From: a virus
Strand: one strand, 5' to 3'
DNA length: 64,000 nucleotides
IMG/VR virus record: IMGVR_UViG_3300046697_000072
Each line of letters opens with the position of its first letter. The first letter of the stretch is position 1. A program made the position numbers and the translations under genes. Shown piece after piece: positions 577-36,221 of this stretch. The notes under the pieces are model-generated. The model made no database searches. It was not told the DNA's origin and saw nothing but the letters and a program-made list of their open reading frames with translations.

Positions 577-731
577 ATCGTTTCGGACACTCTGGCGTTT
601 CCGGTGAAAGGCTCTCTGTTCTGCGATTCGAGCCGCACGAAAAGCGGATCGCTCGCATAGATGACATCCGCGCAATACGGAGAAATTTTCCGTGAGACGT
701 ATGCATCAAGATCCGAGAGCTGCAAAGACAT
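577..731 (-). CDS. major capsid protein candidate, exon 1
   Basis: ATG at 731 follows SD GAGGGGG. Product MSLQLSDLDAYVSRKISPYCADVIYASDPLFVRLESQNREPFTGNARVSET. The DPLFxRL segment recalls the N-terminus of lambda gpE-type capsids (from memory). An in-frame stop falls 2 codons past the predicted 5' splice site. Confidence 0.6.
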
Positions 732-11156: not shown

Positions 11157-11492
11157 TTAAATCATTGCTATCTTCCAGATGGCCAGCCACAGAACCTTGC
11201 ATAGAACGTGCAGGGCCTGATCGACATTAAGCCCGTACCTGCCGTCGCATTTCCCATAGTCGATCAAAGCGTGGGTGCAGAACTCTGCCACGCCAAGCAC
11301 TACGCTCCCGGTCACCAGTGAGACCGCACCCGCCTGAATCAGAGCATGAGCCGCGAGACATTGATACCAGGGGATCGTCGGGATGGGGTTTTTGTGGTTC
11401 TTGCCCCGCGCAAGGAAATCTCCCTGGAGTGGGTAGTCGCAAACTGCGTGGCCCACCAGCAGCCACCAGAATGAAGTCAGTATCAGCGTCAT
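11157..11492 (-). CDS. DUF3307-like integral membrane protein
   Basis: MTLILTSFWWLLVGHAVCDYPLQGDF.. The ATG overlaps the terL stop (ATGA). Confidence 0.55.
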   Translation of the reverse strand: MTLILTSFWWLLVGHAVCDYPLQGDFLARGKNHKNPIPTIPWYQCLAAHALIQAGAVSLVTGSVVLGVAEFCTHALIDYGKCDGRYGLNVDQALHVLCKVLWLAIWKIAMI

Positions 11493-14400: not shown

Positions 14401-14776
14401 CGATCATGGCTTCGATCAAAGTGCTGCATCCCAACTGCCGGCCCTTCACGATAATCAGTTTCTGGGGCTTCCCCATTGCCTTCAGCCGGTAGAACTCCTG
14501 AAGGATCAAATACTGCGATTCCCAGAGAGTGAAAAGCTGGTCCTGCTTTTTCTTCGTGGTGATCCAGAAGTAGTTCCTGGCCGCGTAGGAGAAGTCATCC
14601 GAGCAGTCTCGGGCCTGCTCCATGATGGCCTGCCGGTCGGAAGGGGAGCATGACTCGAACTTATCTGACGATGGGAGCCGGTCCCAGTCTTCGAGTGAGA
14701 TTTTTAGCTTGGCCGGGAGGCCCTGGTCTAGCCAGTCGATCATGCTTTGGATCGAAGGGTCTCGCTTCCAGGCCAT
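11489..14776 (-). CDS. terL: terminase large subunit (intein-containing precursor)
   Basis: Walker A KGRQLGCST and Walker B IDAVHCSEF. C-terminal nuclease-like region. Interrupted by a 355-aa intein. Two Cys4 ribbon-like inserts. Confidence 0.85.
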   Translation of the reverse strand: MAWKRDPSIQSMIDWLDQGLPAKLKISLEDWDRLPSSDKFESCSPSDRQAIMEQARDCSDDFSYAARNYFWITTKKKQDQLFTLWESQYLILQEFYRLKAMGKPQKLIIVKGRQLGCSTLIEAMIAWRSMFFPNTNAIVISVDQKHSSYLFGLMLHIYDKLPWWLKPMIARREEQYGLWFENPDDNQRSRHPGLNSKVFVQWSNQYSGVGQGIPIDAVHCSEFSDFLEEDLEAIVNEDLANSMADDPEVFGFMESTGRGAGTASHLLWRACERRLDAGKWPKWYPLFLPTFFETTRVLAPPNGWTMPHKEFTLRERVKKEWARCNNSICGRYQKAIVMEESMIGTVCPECKAGTLMRLVLTDEQLYWHQDRREQAEEQGVNAVKLLRQEHCIAGNMRVSTELGILPIGARENVGQSSESGEVSGWFDKGFQHTVIVETLSGRILQCTADHLILLESGDWKAAGDLHYGDSVRLCPPRLSGRYCEIEWSDPPIEHHSIHVDEDLGRFLGYFMGDGGLTEGGIGFACDAKDPDVADDIDRLVIKFTGHACCRSRIGGMNSLRSHDIRWRPILKQIGAIELWPNNKYGWHRKVRVPDCIWRSPASVVKEFLSALFECDGNADKNVPRTRFFSKFEPFIRDVQLLLLAFGINGTIHKEDKTNSEGRTFTGRCLGLGVTQSNRFHERVGFISDRKRSACIRPTFQINQWSYQHPMADRVLKVQAGEDCSVFDMEITPSHLFSANGFTVHNCVTSEESWQVSGYVLFSDACRDWMTETIEEFPLKKGKIYRDNGEIHGADPLRKGRCFVPTCNVDHRHDDTPFWVWEEPIKGATYSIAVDVSEGIGEDYSVIFVNKIGGPHRPDEQVAVFRDNHTYPKDLAFYANVIGKWYNYGEMAVEYNTYQTTGDDLLYVYHYPNVYRWKHKDKINPMSQTWHWWTKPNTKAYLHQTAVDWLLSHCWIIRSKNFFEETTTYRKEEYASRSFGAASNCNDDELMAGMISLYTAHELDCDETGRIQVPVGIEESAPARYRMTCLKCKTVWGAANPEKEYRCPNEACQSIRITGEPVTTADPRKTNLDEAFEWMSAQRDNEKPPEVELGVL
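12349..12362. repeat. palindrome copy GGTCAACGTTGCAC
   Basis: terL C-extein. Confidence 0.9.
12542..13606 (-). mobile_element. class 1 intein with LAGLIDADG homing endonuclease domain (355 aa)
   Basis: Starts CIAGNMRV, block B is TADH, ends FTVHN followed by Cys+1. Dodecapeptide motifs LGYFMGDGG and LSALFECDGN. Confidence 0.85.
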
Positions 14777-23748: not shown

Positions 23749-23934
23749 TCAGGCATCGCGTTCGATATCGTCCTTCAGAGCCGCAATCTTGCTCTCAATA
23801 TCGGCCTGCAAGTCCTCCAGGGCGTCGAGCGTCTCGGAAGCGTGAACGCTGGTATCCGAGAACAGTGCATCAAGCGCGTCAGTCGCTGCCTTCAGTTTTC
23901 GTTTCATCTCAGTTTCCATCCAAGATACCCGCAC
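23749..23934 (-). CDS. hypothetical coiled-coil protein
   Basis: Its 5' region duplicates a 29-nt leader also present at 23724-23752. Confidence 0.4.
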   Translation of the reverse strand: MRVSWMETEMKRKLKAATDALDALFSDTSVHASETLDALEDLQADIESKIAALKDDIERDA

Positions 23935-24042
23935 ATCAGGCCCCGGGCGAAGACTAGAACCATCGTCCCCTCCCTCTGAGCATGACGCAATATATAGCTA
24001 TACCAATTCCCCCGGCGAAGACCACCAGCATGGCATCCACTA

Positions 24043-24282
24043 TCATGCCTTTTTCGTCCTGTCCCATTCCATGTAGCACCTCCGGAAACCTTCCCGCTCT
24101 TCCTCTGTGAATCGGGCTTGCTGGCTGAAGTTGAAGCATATATTCGACATCCCGCAACCGCTCGCCAGAATCAGATTCAGACGCCTGCGAAACTCGTTAT
24201 TCGCGTCCTCCAGTTGCCGGATTCGCATGTTTGAGGTTGCCTTCAATAGCCTTAACTTCGTCGCGTCAGATTGCTTTCTCAT
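24043..24282 (-). CDS. hypothetical protein, 79 aa
   Basis: ATG follows SD GAGGAG. Confidence 0.5.
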   Translation of the reverse strand: MRKQSDATKLRLLKATSNMRIRQLEDANNEFRRRLNLILASGCGMSNICFNFSQQARFTEEEREGFRRCYMEWDRTKKA

Positions 24283-24316
24283 GTCATTCTCCTCTTTGAC
24301 CACCAGCATGGCAGCG

Positions 24317-24505
24317 TTATTCGTTCTCTTTTACGCTCAGAATGCGTTGGTCAATAATCTCGTCCATCTGATCGGTTTCTTCGAGGATATTGGTTGGAAT
24401 GCCGTCCTCGATTTGCTTCCGCGCGGCGACGGAGTTCTTAGCTCGCACGATGTAGTCCACTCGGTAGAGCCGTTCTTCTTTCGTAGTCACGATAAACTCT
24501 TTCAC
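24317..24505 (-). CDS. hypothetical protein, 62 aa
   Basis: Clean ORF. Confidence 0.5.
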   Translation of the reverse strand: MKEFIVTTKEERLYRVDYIVRAKNSVAARKQIEDGIPTNILEETDQMDEIIDQRILSVKENE

Positions 24506-24562
24506 TTGTTACCTCCCTTGCCCTTACCTAGCTGGAAAAGACCACCAGAATGGCAGCGGGGA

Positions 24563-24850
24563 TCATCGCAGCGCAGCCTCCAGGAATCGCCAACTCTTCC
24601 GCCGGCAAAGTAGCGCTTTTGATCTCCCTGGGGATGCGAGGATGATTCCTTCTTTCGTCCCCACGAAGTAGCTCCGACAATCCGCGCTCCACGCCTCCGA
24701 CGCTAATGGATTGCATGGTTCGACCTCTACCGGAACAACGTCGCCATCCACCAGGGGATCATCGGACCATCCGGTATCATTGAACACCACGAAACTGCCG
24801 TGCGGTCCGAGTTCATAGCAAATCCAGCACTGTTCTGGATCGCGCGGCAT
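24563..24850 (-). CDS. hypothetical protein
   Basis: ORF; start chosen at MPRDPEQ. Confidence 0.4.
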   Translation of the reverse strand: MPRDPEQCWICYELGPHGSFVVFNDTGWSDDPLVDGDVVPVEVEPCNPLASEAWSADCRSYFVGTKEGIILASPGRSKALLCRRKSWRFLEAALR

Positions 24851-24864
24851 GGCAGCGGCGGCCA

Positions 24865-25101
24865 TCACTTCACCCCTGAACGGTTCTGGCGAATCGCGTC
24901 TAAGTCATTCCGTAGATGCCTCATGGAAGTGTCCGACATCACCGCTAGCTCAACGGAGGACTCCTCGCGGCCTGCAATGCAGTATTGCCGGTACGCTACG
25001 CGATTACTCCATGCCGTGTGCGCGGCCTCGTACCCGGCCAGGTACGCTCGGTCGAACTCCGCATCCTTCAGGGCCGCACATTCAAGATCGTCGCGCTTCA
25101 T
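24865..25101 (-). CDS. hypothetical protein, 78 aa
   Basis: 4-nt overlap with the downstream gene. Confidence 0.5.
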   Translation of the reverse strand: MKRDDLECAALKDAEFDRAYLAGYEAAHTAWSNRVAYRQYCIAGREESSVELAVMSDTSMRHLRNDLDAIRQNRSGVK

Positions 25102-25287
25102 GTCCTCTTCCTCACTCCCTAACGCCCTGAGACTCGGGCATCTCCCTCACGCGCAATCCTCTTCGCCTCCGTTTCGCCGCCCGCCAGATGGCGCAACACC
25201 TCAACCTGCATCGCTTCGGAGGCATCGCGTATCCGCCTTGCAAAACGGCCCGGCACCGTTGCATCCATGTCCTGCGAAAGTGGCCGT

Positions 25288-25470
25288 TCACTTCCCCCGT
25301 CCTTTCCCTGGCGCTCCGTAGACAACCGACACGACCTCCGTGCTTTCGATGGGCCTGCACAGCGCAATCTCTGCACGTAGCTGCAAGACCTCGGCGTACA
25401 GATCATCAACCTCTGAGCCACTCATCGGGATCTCTGCGCTGCCATCGGGAGGCTGGACAAACACAATCAT
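25288..25470 (-). CDS. hypothetical protein, 60 aa
   Basis: ATGA coupling to the upstream gene. Confidence 0.45.
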   Translation of the reverse strand: MIVFVQPPDGSAEIPMSGSEVDDLYAEVLQLRAEIALCRPIESTEVVSVVYGAPGKGRGK

Positions 25471-25895
25471 CGCTTCCTCCCCTCCGCGCGCCGAGGCTTC
25501 GGGCGCTCTTCAAGCAGCCCTTTTAATGTCTTTCCAAACACCGCATTGATGGCCGCGTCAAGCTCCTTCGGGGGCTTCGGGCGCTCGCGGATCTCCTCAG
25601 TCTCCCGCCGGGCCGCGTGGTCGATGCGGATAAACTCTTCTGTCACGTCCTCAAAACAGAGGCCCATCCGTGCGGGTCTACACAACCTACTTGCTTTCTC
25701 CCGCGCCTGCTCCAACGTCATCGCGCCGGAGGGCGGCTGCTCTGCCGGTGACTCGGCAAGGGCGATGGCGGCACGCAGGCTGTACAGTGCTTCGTCAAGG
25801 CCGTGGTCTTGTGGAGTGGCCTCCCATTCGGTTATCACGTCAATTGCCGCCCTGTACAGCGGCACCAGCGCCGCAGGGTTCAGCTCTTTGGGCAT
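25467..25895 (-). CDS. hypothetical protein, 142 aa
   Basis: Clean ORF. Confidence 0.55.
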   Translation of the reverse strand: MPKELNPAALVPLYRAAIDVITEWEATPQDHGLDEALYSLRAAIALAESPAEQPPSGAMTLEQAREKASRLCRPARMGLCFEDVTEEFIRIDHAARRETEEIRERPKPPKELDAAINAVFGKTLKGLLEERPKPRRAEGRKR

Positions 25896-26461
25896 TGCGG
25901 CTCCTCTCTCTTGCGGGCTTCAAGGAATGCTTTCACGGCGGGTAAGTTTCGCTCGTACATCTTACGCTCCAGTAGTTCTAGGGAATCTCGCTTGAAATCC
26001 ATACCGGCGAACTGCATCTCGCCGTCATCCCCGTAGCCCATACCGTTGCTCCACGCCATCCACAGGAGTTCTCTCAATCTCTGATTCTCGGCGTTCTGCG
26101 AAGCGGACTCGGCAAGCTCCAATAAGCGATCTAGGCTACGATTTTCTTCATCGCTTGGCGGCTTCTCCTCACTCTCTTGGATAACCGGCCCCTTCCGCCC
26201 GATGATGGACTCTATTAGCGCTTCGTTCTGAGCCTTCAACCGCGCCGTATCCAGCCGCGCCGATGCGAGTTCGGCTTTCAACTTTGTAACCCGTTCCGTT
26301 AGCGACTCGTTTTGCGCCTTCAGCGACTCGACGCACGCCGCAAGTTCAAATCCTACCGGGTGCTCGCCAATGGAGTCCCAGGCTTCCGCGAGTTCGGCTT
26401 GCGCGGCGGCAAGTTGCCGTCTCAGATCGGTTACGTTGTGGTTCGGGTCCATCTCAGGCAT
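25880..26461 (-). CDS. coiled-coil protein, 193 aa
   Basis: Heptad-like LKAQNE repeats. Confidence 0.55.
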   Translation of the reverse strand: MPEMDPNHNVTDLRRQLAAAQAELAEAWDSIGEHPVGFELAACVESLKAQNESLTERVTKLKAELASARLDTARLKAQNEALIESIIGRKGPVIQESEEKPPSDEENRSLDRLLELAESASQNAENQRLRELLWMAWSNGMGYGDDGEMQFAGMDFKRDSLELLERKMYERNLPAVKAFLEARKREEPQCPKS

Positions 26462-26464
26462 TCT

Positions 26465-26569
26465 TCACCCCGCAATCAGCACTCCAGCGAAACGCATCAC
26501 CACCCCAAACCCGATCAGGATGGAAAAACACAGCAGGTTCGTGCCGAGGCACTTCAGGACCGGGATCAT
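26465..26569 (-). CDS. membrane micropeptide, 34 aa
   Basis: SD GGAGGA and ATGA coupling. Product MIPVLKCLGTNLLCFSILIGFGVVM.. Confidence 0.4.
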   Translation of the reverse strand: MIPVLKCLGTNLLCFSILIGFGVVMRFAGVLIAG

Positions 26570-27024
26570 GGGTGTTCCTCCGGCGCGGCGATCATCTTGA
26601 ATCCCTGCCCACGGAACAACTCGTAAACTGTGCTTCCCGTCGAAGTCTGAAGGTAGGGGAAGAAAACTTCACTGGCTTCCGCCATCCCGCAGTCGATCAT
26701 GGCAAGCTGAGCCTGCACCCAGCGCAACAACTGCCTCCACGCCACGCGTTCGGCCTGCTCCCTGTCTTTCACCGCATTCGACATCCGGTTGTACTGCCGC
26801 CGCCCATTGATCTTCTTGAACACCGGGTCTACCCGAGCGGGCATGGCAAACACCTGATCTCCACCTCCAGGAACGGACAGCACCCATCTCAGTCCTACAA
26901 CCCGACCTGAGTTGTAGTCTGTAGCGATCTGCTTCGCACCAGAGCGGACCAACAGATCGGTGATCTCCCCCGCTGTTTTTCCAGCGGGAATCCCGGTGGT
27001 CTCCATGTACAACGTTGACTTCAT
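26566..27024 (-). CDS. hypothetical protein, 152 aa
   Basis: Start MKSTLYME lies inside a palindrome copy. Confidence 0.5.
   Translation of the reverse strand: MKSTLYMETTGIPAGKTAGEITDLLVRSGAKQIATDYNSGRVVGLRWVLSVPGGGDQVFAMPARVDPVFKKINGRRQYNRMSNAVKDREQAERVAWRQLLRWVQAQLAMIDCGMAEASEVFFPYLQTSTGSTVYELFRGQGFKMIAAPEEHP
27007..27020. repeat. palindrome copy GTACAACGTTGACT
   Basis: Codons 2-6 of CDS 26566-27024. Confidence 0.9.
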
Positions 27025-27194
27025 TTCGGGCTCCACGCGATAGCGACAAGAGCATAGATTCCCGAGAACGCCATCAACGGCCAGTTGCACGGGGGGATCG
27101 CCGCTAGAGTCGCCCCGATAAGTGATCCGGCTCCAAGCGTCCACATCCAGAACAGGCGAAAGTCTCTGTGCGTCGTATTACGCTGGCTCAGCAT
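27021..27194 (-). CDS. small membrane protein
   Basis: SD AAGGAG before the ATG at 27194. Confidence 0.45.
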   Translation of the reverse strand: MLSQRNTTHRDFRLFWMWTLGAGSLIGATLAAIPPCNWPLMAFSGIYALVAIAWSPK

Positions 27195-27391
27195 TTCGGC
27201 TCCTTTCGCTTGGCGGTGGCTTCGACCCCAATAAACAGTTCGTCGCACCCGGCCTCATAGCAGCCGTGTGTCAGGAAGTGCTCGATCTGCTCGTCGGTTC
27301 CCTCAATGATGATGGTCGGGGGCCAGCGCTCGGCGATAGATCCGTACCGCTCAACATCCGCCTTCAACGTAATACGCCGCGTGCCGTTCAT
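27188..27391 (-). CDS. hypothetical protein, 67 aa
   Basis: SD GGGAGGCGGAGGGG before the ATG at 27391. Confidence 0.45.
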   Translation of the reverse strand: MNGTRRITLKADVERYGSIAERWPPTIIIEGTDEQIEHFLTHGCYEAGCDELFIGVEATAKRKEPKC

Positions 27392-27404
27392 CCCCTCCGC
27401 CTCC

Positions 27405-27923
27405 CTAATTATCAAAACCGAACACAACCCGAATTTGAGACGGATCACCTAGACAACGCATGATCGCTAGATCCCGGAAGAAGGCTAGACCCAGAAATTC
27501 CAGAAACGTGACCGTGACCCCGTTTCCCGATCCGGCGTCAGCCGCCCCGTTCCCGTCCTTCATGCAGCGGCGATCCTCGAAAGTCTGGCCGTAGTCGAAC
27601 GCCAGCAACTCATCCAAGCCGAGCCAAGAAAAAGAATGCTCCCCAAAAGGGAGATCGTCCGGATCGCATCCTTTCATGTCTTCGGGAAAGCCCCGTGCCT
27701 TGGAGAGCGGTGGAACGAAGCTGTAATTCCGGACATCCGCCAAGAAGGCGAACATGCCGTAACACCTCCAGGTAAATGGTTCCGGAGAAGACCGGCTCCA
27801 CCTGGATTCCGCATTGAATAAATCCGGGGAAACATCCGGGAACAGCCGCGCCTCGACCGTCTTCCATTCACCGTCCTTAAACACCTGAACTCTGCTATGT
27901 ATGTCGCAACCCATTATGTCCAC
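27405..27923 (-). CDS. hypothetical protein, 172 aa (MGCDIH.. family)
   Basis: Clean ORF. Confidence 0.55.
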   Translation of the reverse strand: MDIMGCDIHSRVQVFKDGEWKTVEARLFPDVSPDLFNAESRWSRSSPEPFTWRCYGMFAFLADVRNYSFVPPLSKARGFPEDMKGCDPDDLPFGEHSFSWLGLDELLAFDYGQTFEDRRCMKDGNGAADAGSGNGVTVTFLEFLGLAFFRDLAIMRCLGDPSQIRVVFGFDN

Positions 27924-28144
27924 TCCGGATTTTCCTTTGCAGCCTTCATCATCTCTGCGAACTCCGGACCAACCGTGTACCGTCCCGAAGCATCGTCAAA
28001 CTTCAGCTTAGATCCACGCTTGTTCATCCGGGCTCGCTGCAACGACCCTTTGTAATCCGCGCCCATCTCCTGGCACAACCGGTCCAGAAAAATCGCACCC
28101 TCGGGATCAGCGTCCCCTTCATCCACCGCCCGGCGTCCGGTCAC
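27914..28144 (-). CDS. hypothetical protein, 76 aa (GTG start overlapping the upstream stop)
   Basis: GTGA overlap at 28144-28141. G/C-rich third positions resume in this frame. Confidence 0.45.
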   Translation of the reverse strand: MTGRRAVDEGDADPEGAIFLDRLCQEMGADYKGSLQRARMNKRGSKLKFDDASGRYTVGPEFAEMMKAAKENPEWT

Positions 28145-28341
28145 GACCGGAACAACTCCGGGTGATCTACCTCGAACTGCCACACCCTCTTCAGGGCCAG
28201 CGTGGATTCGACCTCCAACCGGATGTATTCCAGGTTCAGATCCCTGTACTGGGTCTGCACCTCCGGAGTCGGTTCCAGAAACTTTTCTAGATTGCTCAGG
28301 TCTATTTTCCTGTAGTGCCTCTTTTCCCTCTTCGCCCCCAT
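28141..28341 (-). CDS. 66-aa ORF, or the C-terminal part of the zinc-ribbon protein after a frame change
   Basis: By my hand count, third positions are about 79% G/C here versus about 33% in the long-ORF frame. SD GGAGGAAACGAGCG lies upstream. Confidence 0.5.
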   Translation of the reverse strand: MGAKREKRHYRKIDLSNLEKFLEPTPEVQTQYRDLNLEYIRLEVESTLALKRVWQFEVDHPELFRS

Positions 28342-28657
28342 CGCTCGTTTCCTCCAACCAGTCGATCTTCTCTGGGACTACTCCCCCCAGCGTCGTCATC
28401 CCCAACGCGCTCTTGAACGCCTCGATCACCGCCGCCTTCGGATGCGTGGGCTTCTCTGGGGTATCCTTCTTTATAACCGGTGCCGCTTCCCTCTTCACGG
28501 CCCCCTTCTGCTTCCCTACCACCGGTGCCCTCCTCACTTCACCAATCCCCTCCCGCCATCTCAGGCTCTTGCACCTCGGGCATTGCACCGGTTCCCCGTC
28601 AATTCGACTCTCCCATATCGCCCCGCATTTCCCGCATTCGTTTCGGTCGCCCTTCAT
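28336..28657 (-). CDS. zinc-ribbon protein, N-terminal coding segment
   Basis: ATG at 28657 follows a promoter and AGAGGGA. CGKCG..17..CPRC ribbon. The frame has no stop before the coding signal shifts at the G5 run (28339-28335). Confidence 0.5.
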
Positions 28658-28673
28658 GCTTTCCCTCTTCATA

Positions 28674-28702
28674 ATAATAATAGTAATATGTTCCAGTGTC
28701 AA
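28674..28702 (-). promoter_or_regulatory. consensus promoter TTGACA-17-TATTAT for the leftward small-gene block
   Basis: Minus strand: -35 at 28702-28697 and -10 at 28679-28674. Confidence 0.6.
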
Positions 28703-29790
28703 GCCCTTTTTTGCCCTTATTTTCAATTTCACCCTTTATTTGTAGCCGAAATTTCAAAACTAACCTGTGCCCCCGGAGGGGTTCAATCGCCTCTCGACGC
28801 CGCCATGCCATAGACCGGGGTAGCCTTGGGCCTAGGGTCTTGACTTGCCCCGCGTTCCGTGGGGTGCCTTGCCCCGTAACGGGGTCTTGACTTGCGGGTT
28901 CTCGCGGAGCTAACCCCCTGAAACCAAAGGGGCGGCGGCGGAAAAAATCGCGGCGGCGGCGGCTGCCGATGAGTGCATTTCACGGCGCGGCGGGCGGTTG
29001 AACGCAAGGCGCAAGACGGGGTAGGAACACCGACGGGCAAGTGGGTATAGCCTGGAAGAGACCTCAAGCCTGGTAAGCAGCGCTGTGAATGACAGAGTAG
29101 GGCAACGCAAACGAGTCGATAGCCTGTCGGAATGTTACGGGAGTCGGCAGATAGCGAGCTTAGAACCTGAACGTCGGGTCTTCGGAATGCTAAGGCTTGA
29201 TGGGATGGCAGAGCGCAAGCGGGGGTAAGGCCCCGGTTTTGACAACTGAATAGACACCCGTCCGAGGAAACCCGTGAGCATAGAGCCACGGGGAACCTGG
29301 GAAGGGGGATGCGATCCAGGTTAGGCAAGGACGCGCGTGGCAGTCCCCGGCTCACAGAGGCGCGGGGATGGAGAGGACCAGGGCAATACACTGTTCGACT
29401 GGTCCGGGAATCGGGAATTGGCCCGGTTTGAGGTACAAAGCCTGTCCGCGAGTAGCCACTGGTAATCGGCCCCGTCACACCCCAGGACTTGTACACCGGA
29501 CGGAAGGGGGTATACCACGACCAGACGACAAAGGACTGTCCACGCATGACGGCCTGCTGGTGGTGGATTGGTTTTCGGGGGACAGGAGAGACGCCCGGAT
29601 TCGGCTGGCAACAACCATCCGGCGTTAGACCACAGGATTCGGCTGGCAACAACCTACCTGCGGTTCTCCCCTGTCCCCCACATCTTGTCCGTAGGCTCCG
29701 CTGATAGTCCAAGGCCCCGGTTTTGGGGTATCAGCAGGCCCTACGTGCAACGTTGGACCCCACGGGCTGCTATCCCCGTGGACATCAAAT
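28703..29790. other. 1.1-kb non-coding, hairpin- and repeat-rich region (candidate large structured RNA or control region)
   Basis: No credible ORF. Twin GGGTCTTGACTTGC boxes, a (GGC)n-A6-(GGC)n tract, two AAGGCCCCGGTTTT copies and a nested stem with twin hairpins at 29577-29679. Confidence 0.6.
29745..29758. repeat. palindrome copy GTGCAACGTTGGAC
   Basis: Intergenic, 50 nt upstream of 29808. Confidence 0.95.
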
Positions 29791-29807
29791 CACAGGAGAG
29801 TAACACC

Positions 29808-30215
29808 ATGACGAATCTCGCAGAGCAGTTGAAAGCAGTCGATACCCAGGTTGCGGTCATTGCCGCAGCCAACCCCCAGAAGATCAACGGCGCGGTTAAC
29901 CCGATGGCCGAAATGCAAGCCGAATTGGCCCGTCTCAAGGCCGAGAATGACGGCCTCCGCGCGGAGAAGGCCATGAAACAGTCGGGCACCCTGACAATCC
30001 GCCTGTCCCAGAAAGGCGCGGTCAGTGTCTATGGTCTGGGTCGCTTCCCCGTCACCCTACACCGCGAGCAGTGGGAGAAGCTGGCCAGGATCATGGACAA
30101 GATTCTGGCGTACATCTTGTCCGACCCGACCGAGGTTCTGGACGAGAAGGACGAGACGGGCAAGGCCACTGGCCGCAAGATCACCGTCAAGCTGTCCACC
30201 AAGCCAGTGAAGTAG
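29808..30215 (+). CDS. hypothetical protein, 135 aa
   Basis: ATG follows CACAGGAGAG. Confidence 0.6.
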   Translation: MTNLAEQLKAVDTQVAVIAAANPQKINGAVNPMAEMQAELARLKAENDGLRAEKAMKQSGTLTIRLSQKGAVSVYGLGRFPVTLHREQWEKLARIMDKILAYILSDPTEVLDEKDETGKATGRKITVKLSTKPVK

Positions 30216-30232
30216 ACACGCGGGTACTGTAT

Positions 30233-30256
30233 GCCAGTCTGGACAATCAGACTGGC
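30233..30256 (+). other. intergenic hairpin GCCAGTCTG/CAGACTGGC
   Basis: 9-bp perfect stem with no T-tract. Confidence 0.5.
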
Positions 30257-30260
30257 CCGC

Positions 30261-30275
30261 AGGTCCCACGGACCT
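30261..30275 (+). promoter_or_regulatory. conserved leader hairpin AGGTCC-CAC-GGACCT, 5' of the SD
   Basis: Same element as at 31341-31355. Confidence 0.5.
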
Positions 30276-30292
30276 AACCACAGGAGAAAGCA

Positions 30293-30472
30293 ATGCCGAA
30301 ATACCACGTGTTCCAGAACGGGCTACTGGTCTTCCCGAATGACCTGGCAGACTTTCAAGCGGCCATTACGCGCTACAGGAAAGCCGTAGCCGAAACAGCC
30401 GGGCGTCCCCGGTGTGTTGTTGCACTGCGGAAGCGCCACGGCAGCCGCAGGCTCCGCAGATTCGAGACGTAG
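30293..30472 (+). CDS. hypothetical protein, 59 aa
   Basis: CACAGGAGAAAGCA then ATG. Confidence 0.5.
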   Translation: MPKYHVFQNGLLVFPNDLADFQAAITRYRKAVAETAGRPRCVVALRKRHGSRRLRRFET

Positions 30473-30685
30473 GCTGAGTCTGAGGGGACTCACCACCAGG
30501 GATGCTCGGTGCCAAAAAAGGAGGTACTATGCGCGGGCATTAGGCTAAAGCCCGCTGTAAACCATCGCTCACAATTCGCGCCCCACGTCTTGGGAATCGT
30601 GGGGCAAGCCCGCATTCTCTCAGCCGCCAAGTGGCGCGGGTGGAAGCTGTACGCCAATGAGAGAGAATCAACACAGGAGAGAACC

Positions 30686-30907
30686 ATGAAAGCTCATCCG
30701 AAGCCGAAGTGCCTGACGTGTCGCCTAGTCCGGGCGACCCGCGAGGCTGAGAAGCACCCGAGTCAGACCAGTTGCCTTGCCGTCGTGTCGCTGGCCGAAC
30801 GCCACCGGAATTACGTGGGCGTGGCAGACGCCTGCCCCGTCCATTCCAACCACCGCGACGTGATCCGCATCGTCCAGTCGGCGGAGTACGTCGCCTACTC
30901 GCTGTAG
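30686..30907 (+). CDS. hypothetical Cys-rich protein, 73 aa
   Basis: ACACAGGAGAGAACC then ATG. Confidence 0.5.
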   Translation: MKAHPKPKCLTCRLVRATREAEKHPSQTSCLAVVSLAERHRNYVGVADACPVHSNHRDVIRIVQSAEYVAYSL

Positions 30908-31066
30908 GGCCTTGACTCGCTAGATTTCCGCCCGATTTCCGCTCTTTCCGCACCACGGTTTCAGGCTTGACCGGTATGCATTAGCATACCGCCAGAGAAT
31001 AACTCTTGTCAAGCCGTAACCCTGTCCGCAGACGTTAACCAGCACAATTCACAGGAGAAATACCCT

Positions 31067-31291
31067 ATGTCACAGACCAACAAGTTCTCACGATGGTACG
31101 CTTACAACGCGAGACCCGATTTACTCAAGCCGAAAGTGACCGTCCATGACGCTACAGTCAAGAGCTTCAACGCGCTATTCACCGCGCCTCCGGTTCCAGT
31201 GCCCATACCCCACAAACCGGCGTGCAACGTTGCACCCCGCTCACTGTCGAGATACTGGATCATGCGGACCTACGGCCCCGCATTCCTCTAA
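31067..31291 (+). CDS. hypothetical protein, 74 aa
   Basis: CACAGGAGAAATACCCT then ATG. Confidence 0.5.
   Translation: MSQTNKFSRWYAYNARPDLLKPKVTVHDATVKSFNALFTAPPVPVPIPHKPACNVAPRSLSRYWIMRTYGPAFL
31222..31235. repeat. palindrome copy GTGCAACGTTGCAC (perfect 14-mer)
   Basis: Inside CDS 31067-31291. Confidence 0.95.
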
Positions 31292-31340
31292 GCATCGGAC
31301 GTAGGTACTGTCGGTGGCTCTGGCGAACGGAGCCATCCGC

Positions 31341-31355
31341 AGGTCCTATGGACCT
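31341..31355 (+). promoter_or_regulatory. conserved leader hairpin AGGTCC-TAT-GGACCT, 5' of the SD
   Basis: Second copy, preceded by CCGC and followed by CACAGGAG. Confidence 0.5.
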
Positions 31356-31367
31356 CACAGGAGAACT

Positions 31368-31670
31368 ATGAAACACCCCGACTACGAACTCGGCACGATT
31401 ACGCACATGGGCTGCTGGACCGATATGCGATGTGCCCTCGGAAATCTTCTCGGAGCTACCCTTACCCCCAGCATTACTCCGCTAGAGCACGGATGGCGAG
31501 TGTCTGTCCGCTCTCGGACTCGTTTATCGGCATCCCACGCCCTGTGGCTTGCTGGCTGGTTTAATGGCGCGGCTTTCGCGTGGGGCGCGTCTCCGCTGGC
31601 CGTTTTCCCGATTGTTACGGCGCGTGTTTCGGAAGTGGCATACTTCGAACATCCGGAGGATTTGGTGTAA
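31368..31670 (+). CDS. hypothetical protein, 100 aa
   Basis: CACAGGAGAACT then ATG. Confidence 0.5.
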   Translation: MKHPDYELGTITHMGCWTDMRCALGNLLGATLTPSITPLEHGWRVSVRSRTRLSASHALWLAGWFNGAAFAWGASPLAVFPIVTARVSEVAYFEHPEDLV

Positions 31671-31672
31671 CC

Positions 31673-31846
31673 ATGTCTGAAGGAGTGCTCGATCTGCTGG
31701 TGTCCATCCACCACCAGCTTGCGACCGATTCCGACCTGGATACGGTCACAGCCCCGGAGAAGTACCGGGCGCTGAGAATGAGAATTGAAGGCGTCTTGGC
31801 TCACACGCCATACGCCTATCTCTGCACAGGAGGTCCGCAAGAATGA
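31673..31846 (+). CDS. hypothetical protein, 57 aa
   Basis: ATG lies 3 nt after the upstream stop. Confidence 0.4.
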   Translation: MSEGVLDLLVSIHHQLATDSDLDTVTAPEKYRALRMRIEGVLAHTPYAYLCTGGPQE

Positions 31847-32280
31847 AACACCTTTACGATCCGTACTACCAGAAGACCATCGAGGAGCGTATCGCCGACG
31901 CTGGATGGTTCGACGGTGGCGAAAAGGAATGGCAGTCTCTGCCGCTCCAGGAGCGGGAAGACTTGGCGTTCACTGCCACCGGCTGTCAGGTGGCGTATCC
32001 AACGTGGCACAAGCCGGTGTATTGCGTTCACGTCCGGTGCCAAATTCGGCGTGGGGAGCTACCCCAGATTGCCCTGCTGAACCATGAACTCCAGTCGCAG
32101 GCTGAGAACTGGTGGAGGTTCATTGGCCGGGAGTCTGGACGCGGCCAGCGTTCCAAGCAAGGCCGGATCACGCTTGCCAAACTCTACCGGCATTACCGCA
32201 AGATGGCAATGGAGCGGAAGGAGTATGACCTCTGGAAGCTTGGCGGCGTCGGCATTGCGATGGTAGGAGTGATGGCATGA
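31843..32280 (+). CDS. hypothetical protein, 145 aa
   Basis: ATGA coupling. Confidence 0.55.
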   Translation: MKHLYDPYYQKTIEERIADAGWFDGGEKEWQSLPLQEREDLAFTATGCQVAYPTWHKPVYCVHVRCQIRRGELPQIALLNHELQSQAENWWRFIGRESGRGQRSKQGRITLAKLYRHYRKMAMERKEYDLWKLGGVGIAMVGVMA

Positions 32281-32480
32281 GAGCACCCCGAACCATGACT
32301 CGTTGCCGTAAGCTGGTGGCTACCAGCCACGACGGGCGCTACGCCTACTACCTGGATTCCCGCGATCTGTACATCTACCAACTCAGCCTGCTGAGTCAGG
32401 TCTGGGTTGGATGGCTCTGTACCGTGGCCGTCTGGGACGCCGTGTTCAGTAAATCGGATTCGTTTCAACTCGCGGACTAG
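32277..32480 (+). CDS. hypothetical protein, 67 aa
   Basis: ATGA coupling. Confidence 0.45.
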   Translation: MRAPRTMTRCRKLVATSHDGRYAYYLDSRDLYIYQLSLLSQVWVGWLCTVAVWDAVFSKSDSFQLAD

Positions 32481-32561
32481 GGGTTTTCAGCAGGATGGCC
32501 TGTTGAGAGCAGGCCACCTTGCCGGGTATCCTTACACCCGGATTTCACAGGAGAATAATCT

Positions 32562-32771
32562 ATGGACCCTGACGCGAATTTGAAAGAACAACTCGAAATC
32601 GCCCGCGCAATCCGGGCATCCTACGACGATTGCAACGCCGATGGTACGCTCACTGAAGGCCAGCAGCAATATGTGGCTGAGATAGCCGAGCGGTTTTCCG
32701 AATTGGCGCTGGCCCTCGACGTATGGATAAGCAAGGGCGGATTCCTACCCGCCCGCTGGAGGAACGCATGA
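32562..32771 (+). CDS. hypothetical protein, 69 aa
   Basis: CACAGGAGAATAATCT then ATG. Confidence 0.55.
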   Translation: MDPDANLKEQLEIARAIRASYDDCNADGTLTEGQQQYVAEIAERFSELALALDVWISKGGFLPARWRNA

Positions 32772-33130
32772 ACACCATACGACTCGACGAGAAAGCAGTC
32801 AAGGCGATATTCGAGACGGCGGAAAACCAGTCCGACGCCCTTATCGCGCTTTACCGCATGGTATTCCCAGAGTGGGACCGCATCACGAAGATCGACGGCT
32901 GGCCCACATGCAACAAGTCCACATGGAAGTCCATCTGTGAACGGTTCATGGACCTTGACCGGCGCAAGCACGCCGATGTTATGCCCGGCGGAATGTGGAT
33001 GAACAACGGGTTCTCCAGCCGCGAGGGGGAGCACCTGAAAGACTGGCAAGTGGAGCGCTGCCCGGTCGTCATGGAACCGGAAACGCCTGGACCGTCCAAC
33101 GTTGTACAGCCGCAAGCGATTGCGGCATAG
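32768..33130 (+). CDS. hypothetical protein, 120 aa
   Basis: ATGA coupling at 32768. Confidence 0.55.
   Translation: MNTIRLDEKAVKAIFETAENQSDALIALYRMVFPEWDRITKIDGWPTCNKSTWKSICERFMDLDRRKHADVMPGGMWMNNGFSSREGEHLKDWQVERCPVVMEPETPGPSNVVQPQAIAA
33094..33107. repeat. palindrome copy GTCCAACGTTGTAC
   Basis: 3' end of CDS 32768-33130. Confidence 0.95.
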
Positions 33131-33137
33131 GAGAGCG

Positions 33138-33254
33138 ATGAGATACCTTGAACTGGGCGGGGCGGCCATAGTTGGGCTGGCGATTCTGTCTCTGCTTATG
33201 GACTTGCTCAACGATTTCATCTGCCGGAGTATCGGCGGGAAGGTGGGACGGTAA
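33138..33254 (+). CDS. membrane micropeptide, 38 aa
   Basis: SD TAGGAGAGCG. Hydrophobic core. Confidence 0.4.
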   Translation: MRYLELGGAAIVGLAILSLLMDLLNDFICRSIGGKVGR

Positions 33255-33511
33255 TGGCTCTCACGAAGAAACAACTTCGTAGGCTGGAGGAAATCCGCTA
33301 TGCCTTGTCGAGCGGCGTAGCGTACCTGAGAAAGCCGACTATCGCCGTCTGCATTAAAGGCTCCCCAGCCACCACAACCTATCACGCGGTACGCCCGCTC
33401 GATGGCGTCACGCTCTATGAAGTCGAGAAAGAGATGGGCTCGGAGTTGTGCATGGCTTTCACTGCCCTGCACTCCCTTGAGAAGATGATTGAAGAGGAGC
33501 GGCCCGCATGA
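33254..33511 (+). CDS. hypothetical protein, 85 aa
   Basis: TAATG coupling. Confidence 0.5.
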   Translation: MALTKKQLRRLEEIRYALSSGVAYLRKPTIAVCIKGSPATTTYHAVRPLDGVTLYEVEKEMGSELCMAFTALHSLEKMIEEERPA

Positions 33512-33600
33512 CCCGCACTGTGGCTGGATGGCTGGCCGTGGCTGCTATCTTCATTGGGGCCTATGGCCTCTACTGCATCGCCACGGGGTTCTGGAGGTAG
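33508..33600 (+). CDS. membrane micropeptide, 30 aa
   Basis: ATGA coupling. Product MTRTVAGWLAVAAIFIGAYGLYCIATGFWR. Confidence 0.35.
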   Translation: MTRTVAGWLAVAAIFIGAYGLYCIATGFWR

Positions 33601-33604
33601 ACAA

Positions 33605-33910
33605 ATGGACAAAGAAATTCCTGACTTATCTCGCACAAAAGCCGCTCTCGAAGTGTACGACGCCTTTGACTCCGAGTTCGACGCGGAGGGGAGCCAAGAC
33701 GACGTTCTAGCTGAGTTTGCAGAGCTTGAGCGTTTTGGCAAGGCTGTAGGCAGGGCCTTTGGACTCGACACTGCCGACCGCAACAACGTGGACGACTGCG
33801 AAAGGTGCATCCGGCCAGGGAATAAGGTCCCTCCGGCAGGGATGCAACTGTCTTTTGTGCGCCGCATGGTGGAGCGATGGGAGGAACAGGAAGAACGCCA
33901 CAGCCGGTAA
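33605..33910 (+). CDS. hypothetical acidic protein, 101 aa
   Basis: SD GGAGG before the ATG. Confidence 0.5.
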   Translation: MDKEIPDLSRTKAALEVYDAFDSEFDAEGSQDDVLAEFAELERFGKAVGRAFGLDTADRNNVDDCERCIRPGNKVPPAGMQLSFVRRMVERWEEQEERHSR

Positions 33911-33967
33911 GGAAGCCTCTAGCCGCCACCCGGTGACAGCGGGCGGCGGATGGAGGAGGTCTTAACG

Positions 33968-34186
33968 ATGACGCCGTATATCGGATTTGGAAACGACACT
34001 TTGGCAAAACTGCCGAAGGTTAAATCTGGGGATTCTATCCGCTGCAAGTGTGGCCACGTCCACGCCCTGGAAGACAGCGAGCCACCGATGCTGCTGTGGT
34101 ATCACTGCGACGGAAAGACTTTCCTCGCTGGAATCAATGGATGCTTGACGGATGGCGTCAAAGCGGACGTTTCAGGAGAGATCTGA
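33968..34186 (+). CDS. hypothetical Cys/His protein, 72 aa
   Basis: SD GGAGGAGG before the ATG at 33968. Confidence 0.5.
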   Translation: MTPYIGFGNDTLAKLPKVKSGDSIRCKCGHVHALEDSEPPMLLWYHCDGKTFLAGINGCLTDGVKADVSGEI

Positions 34187-34192
34187 AAACTC

Positions 34193-34226
34193 TTGACATG
34201 GAACCGTTTTCGTGTCACTATATTCA
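34193..34226 (+). promoter_or_regulatory. promoter AAAACTCTTGACA ... ACTATATTCACAG
   Basis: -35 at 34193-34198. The -10 register is ambiguous (18-20 nt spacer). Confidence 0.4.
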
Positions 34227-34243
34227 CAGACCACAGGAGAAAT

Positions 34244-34507
34244 ATGACAATCTCAGCCGAACAAATCAGCAAGCTGGAGGAAGGACTTTCCAAGCCGAAC
34301 GTGGAATCTATGAAACACGATGTCCACGAGTGGCAGAATAGTCCTCCCTATAACTCTCTGGCTAATGTAGTCATTCTGTCATTCGTGACGGGAGATCTCC
34401 CCGTCATCCTTGCCGCTATCGGAGCGGCCCTGCACCACGGGTACACTCTGGGCTATGCCGCTGCCCAGTCCGAGAGCTTGGACCGCATGCTGGAGGATGG
34501 CCAATGA
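34244..34507 (+). CDS. hypothetical protein with a C-terminal TM segment
   Basis: CCACAGGAGAAAT then ATG. Confidence 0.5.
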   Translation: MTISAEQISKLEEGLSKPNVESMKHDVHEWQNSPPYNSLANVVILSFVTGDLPVILAAIGAALHHGYTLGYAAAQSESLDRMLEDGQ

Positions 34508-35979
34508 ACCTACTGGCGAGCTTCCGTGCCGCAAGGCGCGTCTCAACTCCCTTAATTTGCATCCGGACGGCTGACCCGGCTGCAACCATGCGGACAATCA
34601 GCACGTCCTTCAACGGAGACCCGCCTCCGATCCTACACTGGGACACCGTGGCGGGAATCCGGGGTGTCAATAAACCCGGCGTGGCCGCAGCCGGGGACCT
34701 GGGCAGCGATCCTGGTAGCATCATCGGCCCAGTGGATGCGCTCATTGCGGCGGCGAAGCTACCGCCGCGCTCCATGCTGTTCTTCGCCAATGCCCATCGG
34801 GTGATCGGTGAGAATGGCGTTTCCCAAGCCGTATGGAATCTCCGGGACTCATTCAAGCGGGACACCCGGACTCTGGTCATGCTCTGTCCAACGTTGAACC
34901 TTCCGGCTGAAATCAGCCAAGATGTCCTGATGCTGGATGAGCCACTCCCGACCAGTGAAGAACTGGAGGCCATTGTCCGCGACACGTTCAAGAGCGCGGA
35001 CCTCACGATGGCCGAAGATGGCTCAATCACGAAAGCCGTGGACGCCATCTGCGGGCTAGCCGCGTTCCCGGCTGAACAGTCCTGCGCCATGAGCATCACC
35101 AAAGACGGTATGGACTTGGATGCGCTATGGGACCGGAAGAGAAGCTCAATCGAGGAACAACGCGGCCTATCAGTCTGGAGAGGAGGAGAGAAGTTCTGTG
35201 ACATCGGGGGCTACTCCAATCTCAAGAAATTCCTGATGGCTGTCCTGAAAGGCAGAGTCCCCCCGCGTGGAATAGTTTTCCTGGATGAACTTGAGAAGGG
35301 CATCGGCACCGGGCAAGACACGTCCGGTGTCAGCCAGGGGCTACTCCAGCAGCTTCTCACCTACATGCAGGATAAGGAGTCGATTGGCCTGCTTCTAATC
35401 GGCGCGGCGGGGACTTCCAAGTCCATGTTCGCCAAGGCTACCGGCAATGAGGGCGGTGTCCCGACTATCGCTCTGGACCTCGGTGGGATGAAGGGTTCTC
35501 TGGTAGGTGAATCCGAAGCCTCTCTCCGTAATGCCCTGAAAGTCTGCGATGCTGTCACTCAGAAACGAGCCCTATTTTTGGGAACGTGTAATTCTATCGG
35601 AGCTTTACCCCCGGAGCTACGGCGTCGGTTCAATCTAGGCATTTTCTTTTTGGATCTCCCGAACTCTGCCGAGCGTAAGGCCATCTGGGACCTGTATCTC
35701 AAGAAGTATGATTTACCGAAACAGACACTCCCGACAGATGACGGCTGGACAGGTGCAGAGATCCGGCAGGCTTGCTGGATTTCTTGGAACCTCAACATTC
35801 CCCTAGTGGAAGCGGCGGAGTACATTGTCCCGGTATCCCGGTCTGCATCGGAGCAGATCTCCAAGCTCCGGGATAGCGCCGATGGACGGTACATCAGTGC
35901 ATCGTACCCCGGAGTGTTCCTTAAAGCTGGCCCCTCTTCGGCTCAGACCGGACGCAAGATGAATCTGGAGGTCAACTGA
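34504..35979 (+). CDS. AAA+ family ATPase (atypical motif order)
   Basis: P-loop-like GAAGTSKS, VGESEASLR, sensor-like GTCNS and PPELRRRF. The acidic FLDELEK box lies N-terminal to the P-loop. Confidence 0.7.
   Translation: MNLLASFRAARRVSTPLICIRTADPAATMRTISTSFNGDPPPILHWDTVAGIRGVNKPGVAAAGDLGSDPGSIIGPVDALIAAAKLPPRSMLFFANAHRVIGENGVSQAVWNLRDSFKRDTRTLVMLCPTLNLPAEISQDVLMLDEPLPTSEELEAIVRDTFKSADLTMAEDGSITKAVDAICGLAAFPAEQSCAMSITKDGMDLDALWDRKRSSIEEQRGLSVWRGGEKFCDIGGYSNLKKFLMAVLKGRVPPRGIVFLDELEKGIGTGQDTSGVSQGLLQQLLTYMQDKESIGLLLIGAAGTSKSMFAKATGNEGGVPTIALDLGGMKGSLVGESEASLRNALKVCDAVTQKRALFLGTCNSIGALPPELRRRFNLGIFFLDLPNSAERKAIWDLYLKKYDLPKQTLPTDDGWTGAEIRQACWISWNLNIPLVEAAEYIVPVSRSASEQISKLRDSADGRYISASYPGVFLKAGPSSAQTGRKMNLEVN
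34886..34899. repeat. palindrome copy GTCCAACGTTGAAC
   Basis: Inside the AAA+ CDS. Confidence 0.95.
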
Positions 35980-36221
35980 TGGAACAACAGCCGATAGACA
36001 ACAAAGCTGTTCTAAAAGACGGCTTCAACTTCACCCCGATCTATAAAAACGTGAGGGTACGTATGAAAATCAGCCGCGCCGATCACGCCAAACTGGGGAG
36101 GGGTCCGGGAATGTACGGGATTGTTACAGATCAACAGGACGGGAAGCGGTACAAAGTGTACGGACGGTCCTGCGGCCTTCCACGTTGCATGTGTGACGCC
36201 GAAATCAAAGATGTCGCCTAG
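35979..36221 (+). CDS. hypothetical protein, 80 aa
   Basis: TGATG coupling. Confidence 0.5.
   Translation: MEQQPIDNKAVLKDGFNFTPIYKNVRVRMKISRADHAKLGRGPGMYGIVTDQQDGKRYKVYGRSCGLPRCMCDAEIKDVA

Follow-up and report, generated by a model that had tools for sequence, protein, structure and literature searches.

Structured RNAs longer than 500 nucleotides (nt) are rare in bacteria and phages and, to our knowledge, every large class found so far (RNase P, group I and group II introns, OLE, GOLLD, ROOL and the IscB guide RNA) does something unusual. We describe here a candidate for a further one, encoded in a non-coding region at the divergence point between leftward and rightward genes in the viral record IMGVR_UViG_3300046697_000072, of which a stretch of 64,000 nt was analysed (the window). 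Among known RNAs it most resembles in kind the ornate phage RNAs GOLLD and ROOL; like them it is phage-borne, non-coding, 0.6–0.8 kb long and rich in hairpins, some of them with GNRA loops. GOLLD has a conserved 3′ and a variable 5′ region, as does the window RNA, and kissing loops and A-minor contacts mediate multimers in ROOL and GOLLD (PMC12286853). The repeated loops of the window RNA could mediate multimer contacts likewise, although no contact can be inferred from the two to three representatives at hand.

Genes left of position 28732 lie on the minus strand and those right of 29808, the first rightward ATG, on the plus strand. The flanking genes encode a 250-aa zinc-ribbon protein and a 135-aa protein. 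From its sequence the region between them is composite, consisting of a control module (28766–29012), an RNA-specific unit (~29013–29686) and a hairpin-rich leader (29687–29807). What our analysis shows, between the control module and the first early open reading frame (ORF), is a non-coding segment under strand-specific constraint in which hairpins are conserved and fixed loops occur in duplicate. This segment probably specifies a functional structured RNA on the plus strand, and on balance we favor the fuller reading in which 29013–29790 (plus strand) is a large structured non-coding RNA of an undescribed class and the module to its left a separate DNA-level divergent control region. The first-pass annotation had called the region a candidate large RNA or control hub, and both halves of that description hold, each in a different part of the region. 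Its RNA of about 0.9 kb is supported as a unit but is smaller, ~0.67 kb (29013–29686), or ~0.78 kb with the shared 3′ leader.

Conserved hairpins and the limits of the putative RNA unit

The comparison covers two full sequences, the window and contig L103, together with a fragment in contig L094. L103, a 1432-bp ENA contig reached through homologues of the right-hand neighbor protein, is the one full homologue; it aligns to window 28783–29810, and no gene is called in the 1058 nt upstream of its right-hand-neighbor homologue. Nucleotide identity is 30–50% over window 28873–29175 and 90–98% over 29206–29805 with the insertion site excluded, compared to 50–88% in the adjacent protein gene (69% at the amino-acid level), so the RNA-specific unit comprises a sequence-divergent 5′ domain (29013–29205) and a highly conserved 3′ domain (29206–29686). 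Within the latter, the core at 29242–29576 is 88–95% identical outside the insertion site and 57–67% identical in the two 60-column windows that span it. The two sequences differ by indels of 20, 7, 2 and 1 nt; the 20-nt insertion in L103, after 29323, forms a perfect 6-bp hairpin at what is predicted to be the tip of a helix. The 5′ domain of L103 is arranged differently, being shorter before hairpin H1 and 45 nt longer between hairpins H1 and H2 (Table 1).

Two partial relatives set the limits of the unit. The end of L094 aligns to window 29025–29118, downstream of an extra 71-amino-acid (aa) ORF and a hairpin resembling window 29702–29737, which places the start of the unit at ~29013–29025 and suggests that it is probably kept in one further lineage besides L103. 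Contig L104 shares window 29687 onward only, with the same long hairpin, differing in its apex, after a small ORF; 29687–29807 is thus a leader that exists without the RNA directly before it. The long hairpin is kept in both L103 and L104, its base being retained in L104 while the apex is replaced by a different paired sequence, and a related hairpin follows the 71-aa ORF of L094. Searches for further relatives were otherwise negative: with the neighboring 135-aa protein as anchor, IMG/VR and Joint Genome Institute (JGI) metagenomes yielded 89 loci, all distant and without nucleotide similarity to the region; protein-anchored scans of IMG/VR gave no relative carrying the region; and DNA pattern scans of IMG/VR and GTDB genomes gave no match, or chance or coding matches only. 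A 22-nt exact match to window 29256–29277 lies in a protein-coding gene of an unrelated 170-kb IMG/VR contig (L121, 5515–5536); there is no similarity beyond these 22 nt, and we treat it as chance, though it is long for chance.

No coding signal was found in any of the six frames of window 28733–29807. A codon-usage log-odds score trained on 24 long window ORFs is below zero in all six frames over 28720–29680, whereas each flanking gene scores positive in its correct frame. The 11 ORFs of at least 40 aa tested in the region, including the 309-aa minus-strand ORF that is the longest candidate, gave no match above threshold in Pfam or PHROGs; the minus-strand ORF at 28910–29110 has a weak, sub-threshold match to iRhom1-2_N (E 0.022, 14.8 bits against a cutoff of 25). 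Against 5.8 billion proteins the 309-aa ORF has two matches, its own entry and a chance ORF overlying the module in L094, and in L103 its sequence is split into four frames; plus-strand ORFs starting at 29309 and 29368 are frameshifted there by the 20-nt and 1-nt indels. Codon bias, a kept frame and homologues or domains are all missing from the region, in agreement with the first-pass view that it holds no credible ORF, and the prospect of a real protein gene at 28783–29712, which that annotation had named among the findings that would overturn its proposal, is countered by the loss of the frame in L103.

The clearest evidence for structure comes from the hairpins of the divergent 5′ domain. 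Between the window and L103, the 10 pairs of H1 show five compensatory double changes, two single compatible changes and none broken, so that all seven changed pairs still pair, and H1 is predicted also when each sequence is folded alone. H2 has two double changes in its four curated core pairs, and RNAalifold finds four doubles and one single in the extended stem. Both hairpins present the same loop motif. In a scan of 1.36 Mb, no YGGAAUGNU-loop hairpin outside this RNA had a stem free of multiple wobble pairs; an additional GGAAUG hairpin at window 51658 was discarded as chance because three G-U pairs lie in its 4-bp stem. A third small hairpin, CUGU-GAAUG-ACAG (29084–29096, plus strand), carries a GAAUG loop upstream of H1 and has no clear counterpart in L103.

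At the start of the 3′ domain, the stem of the GCAA tetraloop has two compensatory doubles, and the terminator-like hairpin that follows is identical in L103, along with its repeat copy. Helix 29375–29381/29399–29405 in the core carries one C-G to U-A compensatory change. The three-way junction folds alike in the window and L103 (−53.4 and −52.2 kcal/mol); its closing stem in L103 has a 2-nt CG insertion and three changes, yet pairing is kept, and the sole change in the twin-hairpin loops is GCAA to GAAA, still GNRA. A self-complementary linker hexamer (UGUACA at 29491, UUGCAA in L103) was rejected as a dimerization site, as such a hexamer is kept or created by chance in 17% of simulations. 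Over five curated hairpins with 24 pairs, 11 pairs are unchanged, two have single compatible changes, 10 have compensatory double changes and one is broken, and the loops are invariant.

Global measures agree. RNAalifold, run on an anchor-guided pairwise alignment of the window and L103, finds 10 double-compensated pairs, compared to 2.5 ± 1.4 in 120 column shuffles (maximum 6), and a consensus energy of −253.9 kcal/mol that is 8.6 standard deviations below that of the shuffles (−187.0 ± 7.8). Indeed, the L103 substitutions break only eight pairs of the minimum-free-energy structure of the window, whereas 18.5 ± 2.5 would be expected (0 of 2000 permutations). Several measures favor the plus strand: the folding energy over 29100–29745 (dinucleotide-shuffle z of −2.69 against −1.12 on the minus strand), the number of double-compensated pairs (10 against 4), the presence of G-U pairs in the covarying stems and the base composition, with 35% G and 15% U on that strand. 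Compensatory changes and strand asymmetry, the two signs looked for in a structured RNA, are therefore both present, as judged from two sequences. The comparison with a related phage that the first-pass annotation had suggested thus returned frame-breaking indels, the insertion of a whole hairpin and compensatory changes on the plus strand.

Table 1 Features of the divergent region (window coordinates)
Feature	Position	Strand	Basis or remark
Leftward sigma-70-like promoter of first leftward gene	28674–28702	−	Promoter scan; likely start ATG 28657 or 28672
Conserved intergenic control module	28766–29012		Promoter-like and operator-like boxes; blocks A–D
Block A, TTCAATCGCCTCTCnACGCCGCCATGCCAT	28782–28811		Block of module
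Block B, box 1 plus hairpin CCCCGCG-UUC-CGUGGGG	28835–28864		Invariant block
Box 1, GGGTCTTGACTTGC	28835–28848	+	Resembles extended −35; GG-N10-GC spacing
Box 2, GGGTCTTGACTTGC	28882–28895	+	TTGACA or TTTACA in relatives
Block D, right-hand conserved block	28962–29007		Module conservation
309-aa ORF, TTG start, spurious	28783–29712	−	Negative codon score, no family match, frame lost in L103
RNA-specific unit, ~0.67 kb, G-rich, U-poor	29013–29686	+	L103 alignment, base composition, no coding signal
Hairpin H1, two-tier stem, invariant 9-nt loop CGGAAUGUU	29115–29148	+	Covariation with L103
Hairpin H2, loop YGGAAUGNU (H1 loop motif)	29172–29202	+	Covariation with L103
GCAA-tetraloop hairpin (29213–29220) and weak terminator-like CGGGG-N6-CCCCG with GUUUUG	29213–29241	+	First AAGGCCCCGGUUUUG copy, 29227–29241
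Conserved core of 3′ domain, predicted multi-branched	29242–29576	+	Includes helix 29375–29381/29399–29405
Three-way junction, closing stem GGGGGACAGGAGAGA / UCUCCCCUGUCCCCC around twin hairpins	29577–29679	+	Twin inner part GGCUG-GNRA-CAACC, identical
Long imperfect hairpin, second AAGGCCCCGGUUUUG copy (29711–29725)	29681–29755	+	Part of leader of first rightward gene
Hairpin CCACGGG-N8-CCCGUGG (29760–29781) and ribosome-binding site CACAGGAGA (29791–29799)	29760–29807	+	First rightward gene, ATG 29808

Every repeat and hairpin reported in the first-pass annotation was recovered at its given position, and the repeats are more frequent than chance predicts. The 15-mer AAGGCCCCGGTTTTG is indeed found at 29227 and 29711, with three matches compared to 0.14 expected (three reached in 0 of 100 shuffles); both copies are exact in L103 (450–464 and 963–977) and lie in different structural contexts, the first forming the 3′ half and U-tract of the terminator-like hairpin and the second lying at the apex of the long hairpin. 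Duplication of the target site of an inserted element was rejected as the origin of this direct repeat, there being no terminal inverted repeats and both copies being conserved in L103. The CCACGGG/CCCGTGG hairpin and the palindrome copy (AACGTT, at ~29745–29758) are likewise present, and the AACCTGG/CCAGGTT hairpin exists at 29294–29323 but is not kept in L103. Two further repeats are a 36-nt direct repeat (29589–29624 and 29627–29662) and a 15-bp inverted repeat (29577–29591 and 29665–29679).

The control module and its promoter-like boxes

The two GGGTCTTGACTTGC boxes and the GGCGGCGGCGG-AAAAAATC-GCGGCGGCGGCGGC repeat (28931–28963) are present as first reported; they belong, however, to a separate 250-nt module and not to the RNA-specific unit. 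L094, reached through the chance protein match to the minus-strand ORF, shares with the window the module at 28766–29012 (91% over 254 nt), and both flanks differ. The module is also found in L099, L100 and L101, which were reached through homologues of the left-hand neighbor protein, beside the AT-rich promoter of the first leftward gene (L100 covers its first 38 nt only), and in L103, which starts inside the module and whose head is nearly identical to the tail of L101. Invariant blocks are TTCAATCGCCTCTC... and box 1 with its small hairpin, and block C, between blocks B and D, is variable and holds box 2. Since the folding energy of the module is ordinary (z of −1.5 and −0.8) and the hairpin of block A is absent in L101 and L103, we read the module as acting at the DNA level; it looks like a divergent control sequence separate from the RNA-specific unit.

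Two other readings of block A were rejected. Its GGUUCAAUCGCC resembles a T-loop, and a tRNA-like 3′ end or attP was considered, but ARAGORN was negative and the stem is lost in L101 and L103; a leftward peptide starting ATGGCATGG (28811) has an in-frame stop in L099. Block D contains a 10-codon plus-strand ORF (28969–29001) encoding MSAFHGAAGG*, with MSAFHSAASG* in L094 and MSVFHGAAGE* in L101 and L103; its start and TGA stop are kept in these relatives, and no ribosome-binding motif precedes it. The ORF may encode a leader peptide, or nucleotide conservation may have kept it by coincidence.

A promoter scan recovered the leftward sigma-70-like promoter (TTGACA-17-TATTAT), and L094, L099, L100 and L101 carry comparable AT-rich CTTGACA promoters at the matching position. 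The same scan found no rightward sigma-70 promoter in the region. Box 1 is invariant in all four relatives that cover its position, and the box 2 hexamer varies within −35-like forms only (TTGACT, TTGACA and TTTACA), its spacer and downstream sequence having diverged in L101 and L103; no −10 element follows either box. Elsewhere in the window, plus-strand promoters at 40864 and 42890, as well as the leftward CTTGACA promoter, have good −10 elements.

The box has four matches at two or fewer mismatches, compared to 0.62 expected (four reached in 1 of 100 shuffles). As the 14-mer GGGYCTTGACTYGC it occurs on the plus strand at 28835–28848, 28882–28895 and 30907–30920, with the GG-N10-GC spacing of sigma-54 (−24/−12) promoters and TTGC at −12, and a sigma-70 −10 element follows none of these three copies. 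The sigma-54-like 14-mer is a possible lead for the missing rightward promoter. The third box is followed by a short direct repeat, GATTTCCGCCC / GATTTCCGCTC (30923–30945, plus strand), and shares its intergenic gap with a convergent minus-strand sigma-70-like promoter (31012–30983).

Genes for HNH endonucleases lie close to the module in two relatives: in L099 (339–851) one separates the module from the homologue of the first leftward gene, and in L094 (746–1261) one adjoins the module, the contig ending within the gene. These genes point to mobile-gene traffic at the junction.

A proposed course of action and competing explanations

We propose that rightward transcription would start inside or just left of the module and that the transcript would fold into two domains. 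The 5′ domain, whose sequence evolves fast while its hairpins are kept, would present the 9-nt loop YGGAAUGNU at least twice, as covariation indicates, and the almost invariant 3′ domain is predicted to end in a three-way junction with twin GNRA-capped hairpins, a junction kept in both phages. As no terminator precedes the first ORF, the RNA would form the first part of the transcript of the early DNA-metabolism operon. The long hairpin may be a processing or stabilizing site that releases it, and the repeated identical loops may then serve as working surfaces for a multivalent partner, perhaps a protein of phage or host, or other copies of the RNA itself, by analogy with the assembly of ROOL and GOLLD. 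Action in trans after processing, as opposed to purely in cis, strikes us as having a little less than an even chance. More tentatively, the RNA might be the founding member of a new class of ~0.7-kb ornate phage RNAs, conserved in a clade of uncultivated soil or peat phages whose hosts are probably Acidobacteriota, the first product of the early operon, forming an RNA-only or RNA-protein assembly through its repeated loops; its role might then be in host take-over, anti-defence or replication control.

Several points weigh against this proposal. One full homologue and one fragment are too few for a family-level covariation statistic, and shuffling by column, the control used, breaks up dinucleotides. 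When the L103-only structure is taken as reference, 11 pairs are broken compared to 13.8 expected, which is not significant, and local folding z-scores in 150-nt windows are no better than those of flanking coding sequence. The fold of the 3′ domain counts as predicted because the domain is nearly invariant, and its high identity could stem from recent recombination instead of constraint. Neither a promoter with a −10 element nor a terminator was found in the scans. Finally, the trans-acting and processing steps are argued by analogy throughout.

The main rival holds that the early rightward operon has a giant 5′ leader acting in cis, which would control read-through or translation while attached; the twin hairpins could bring about processive antitermination, as in the HK022 put RNA, or the terminator-like hairpin (29219–29241) could cause attenuation. 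A terminator scan finds none between the RNA and the first rightward ORF, conservation is unbroken up to the ribosome-binding site, an internal hairpin with U4 is present, and a ~75-nt twin-hairpin unit lies downstream of an early control module, all of which would suit such a leader. The scan does not call the internal hairpin, as it has only four U; as for the marks of a stand-alone small RNA, an own promoter and a 3′ intrinsic terminator, the conserved −35-like boxes lack a −10 element and this weak hairpin is the one terminator-like feature before the first ORF. Nine nucleotides of the genuine ribosome-binding site, ACAGGAGAG, recur in the 5′ strand of the junction stem, a recurrence that could suggest a sequestration switch; however, changes in the 3′ strand of this stem in L103 are compensated by its own 5′ strand and not by the ribosome-binding site, so the switch is not conserved and we rejected it. 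The near copy of the ribosome-binding motif, GACAGGAGAGA (29581), is itself that 5′ strand. At ~0.7 kb the element also exceeds the known cis-regulatory leaders of bacteria and phages several-fold in size, and its distance to promoter and gene is not fixed: in L094 a cassette of an ORF and a hairpin separates the module from the RNA start, and in L104 an ORF directly precedes the shared 3′ hairpin. We regard a purely cis-acting leader as unlikely, if still the strongest competitor.

The remaining alternatives are less probable. A replication origin with a primer RNA in the manner of ColE1 RNA II or a T4 R-loop, in which a G-rich transcript hybridizes to its template and primes DNA synthesis, would fit the position at the strand switch and cumulative GC-skew minimum, the strongly G-rich non-template strand (GC skew up to +0.27 compared to ~0 in the following genes), the adjoining AT-rich stretch and the block with RecT and helicase genes that the region heads. 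We nevertheless consider it improbable: the origin hallmarks looked for are absent from the region, with no iteron array, no direct repeat in three exact copies (three copies of one 17-nt family are 76–82% identical) and no DnaA-box match within 28600–29900; the scan finds no antisense promoter; and conservation falls on hairpin loops and paired stems and not on a tract suited to hybrid formation. Slightly less probable still is that no functional RNA exists, the whole 1.1 kb being DNA-level control and decayed filler and the identity to L103 reflecting recent recombination. The left 250 nt do behave as a DNA-level module, local folding z-scores are ordinary and identity changes in sharp steps along the alignment, as it does in mosaic phage genomes. 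The diverged 5′ part, however, cannot be a recent exchange, and its stems pair through 10 double changes while the loops stay fixed; the L103 insertion is a complete hairpin, and the strand asymmetry also speaks against filler. A protein gene, whether the 309-aa minus-strand ORF or a small plus-strand one, is scarcely credible. A gene caller annotated 254 aa of the minus-strand ORF in the source contig, and the 10-codon ORF shares its stop codon across the window, L094 and L101/L103; but codon scores, family searches and the frames broken in L103 all speak against coding, as does the lack of the operon ribosome-binding motif before any ORF in the region, and the long-ORF version is already refuted.

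Genome setting and comparison with known RNAs

The window is part of a 103,751-bp JGI metagenome contig, and L010 is 100% identical to window 23808–36215. The genome is that of a tailed phage, with a portal protein, RecT, a helicase, a group I intron and a LAGLIDADG-type intein signature in a large ORF. At the nucleotide level the genome matches no isolate phage, and the region has no match among the isolate phages and plasmids searched; judged by portal protein, the closest isolates are phages of Tunturiibacter (Acidobacteriota), at 25% identity. Rightward genes are each preceded by the ribosome-binding motif CACAGGAGA, which occurs 12 times in the window compared to 0.6 expected, 10 copies being on the plus strand between 29791 and 40913 and none on that strand upstream of 29791; all four copies inspected (29791, 30279, 30672 and 31050) precede a start codon. 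The lineage is rich in selfish elements, including the intron, the intein signature and the HNH genes of the relatives. The group I catalytic intron (358–586, minus strand; RF00028, 82.3 bits, E 2e-19) lies at the 3′ end of the minus-strand ORF 359–1654 and is the sole gathering-level Rfam match in the 64 kb. In a 1095-aa ORF (11489–14776, minus strand) a LAGLIDADG domain is accompanied by an intein-splicing match that is weak and below threshold (22.9 bits; cutoff 35.8), which suggests a large phage protein with an intein.

The region itself belongs to no family that we could find. The Infernal scan with all Rfam models that the first-pass annotation had recommended gave, for 28500–30000 with Rfam 15 and E up to 10, only a 14.9-bit chance match to a snoRNA, and scans of L103, L094, L101 and L104 gave nothing relevant; ROOL, GOLLD, OLE, HEARO, raiA, RNase P, 6S, tmRNA, pRNA and type III antitoxin RNAs are among the Rfam families whose models it does not match. 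A group I intron in the region has neither an Rfam match, in the same scan that finds the 82-bit one elsewhere, nor flanking exon ORFs, and an ORF-less group II intron has no RF00029 match at E up to 10 and no GUGYG at the candidate boundaries 29013 and 29242. ARAGORN found no tRNA or tmRNA gene in the window or in L094–L098.

Several described RNAs nevertheless resemble the element in part. Like the HK022 put RNA and the lambda nut sites, it lies immediately downstream of a divergent early control region, and it shares with put two adjacent stem-loops of ~75 nt (29590–29664); it is, however, ten times larger, with identical GNRA-capped tips on the twin hairpins inside a closing stem. ColE1 RNA II is likewise structured, G-rich and ~0.5–0.7 kb long, its promoter adjoining a replication or control region, but here antisense promoter, iterons and DnaA boxes are missing and protein genes follow directly. 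The phi29 pRNA is phage-encoded, structured, made from an early promoter and diverges in sequence while its secondary structure is kept; it differs in being 174 nt long and found in phi29-like phages, whereas the window RNA has neither an Rfam match to it nor any sign of a link to packaging. The P4 CI and P1 C4 immunity RNAs are processed from an early leader and act on repeated targets in the same transcript, and the window RNA would also come from an early operon leader, with AAGGCCCCGGUUUUG twice in the transcript and both copies kept in L103. No segment of the window RNA is complementary to this repeat, however, and its sole near-complement, at 48969, was rejected as a partner as it lies inside a coding sequence.

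From GOLLD and ROOL the window RNA differs in matching no Rfam model, so that it is a member of neither family, in not being near tRNA genes (none in the 64 kb) and in heading an early operon without a terminator of its own. Three features set the candidate apart from the known large RNAs: its phage lineage has been sampled poorly; its location, at the front of the early operon, is well defined and open to experiment; and its duplicated hairpins with fixed loops invite binding studies. If our reading is correct, it would provide a new RNA family and a handle on the start of infection by such phages and, if it is an ornate RNA, it would rank with ROOL and GOLLD while being unrelated to both.

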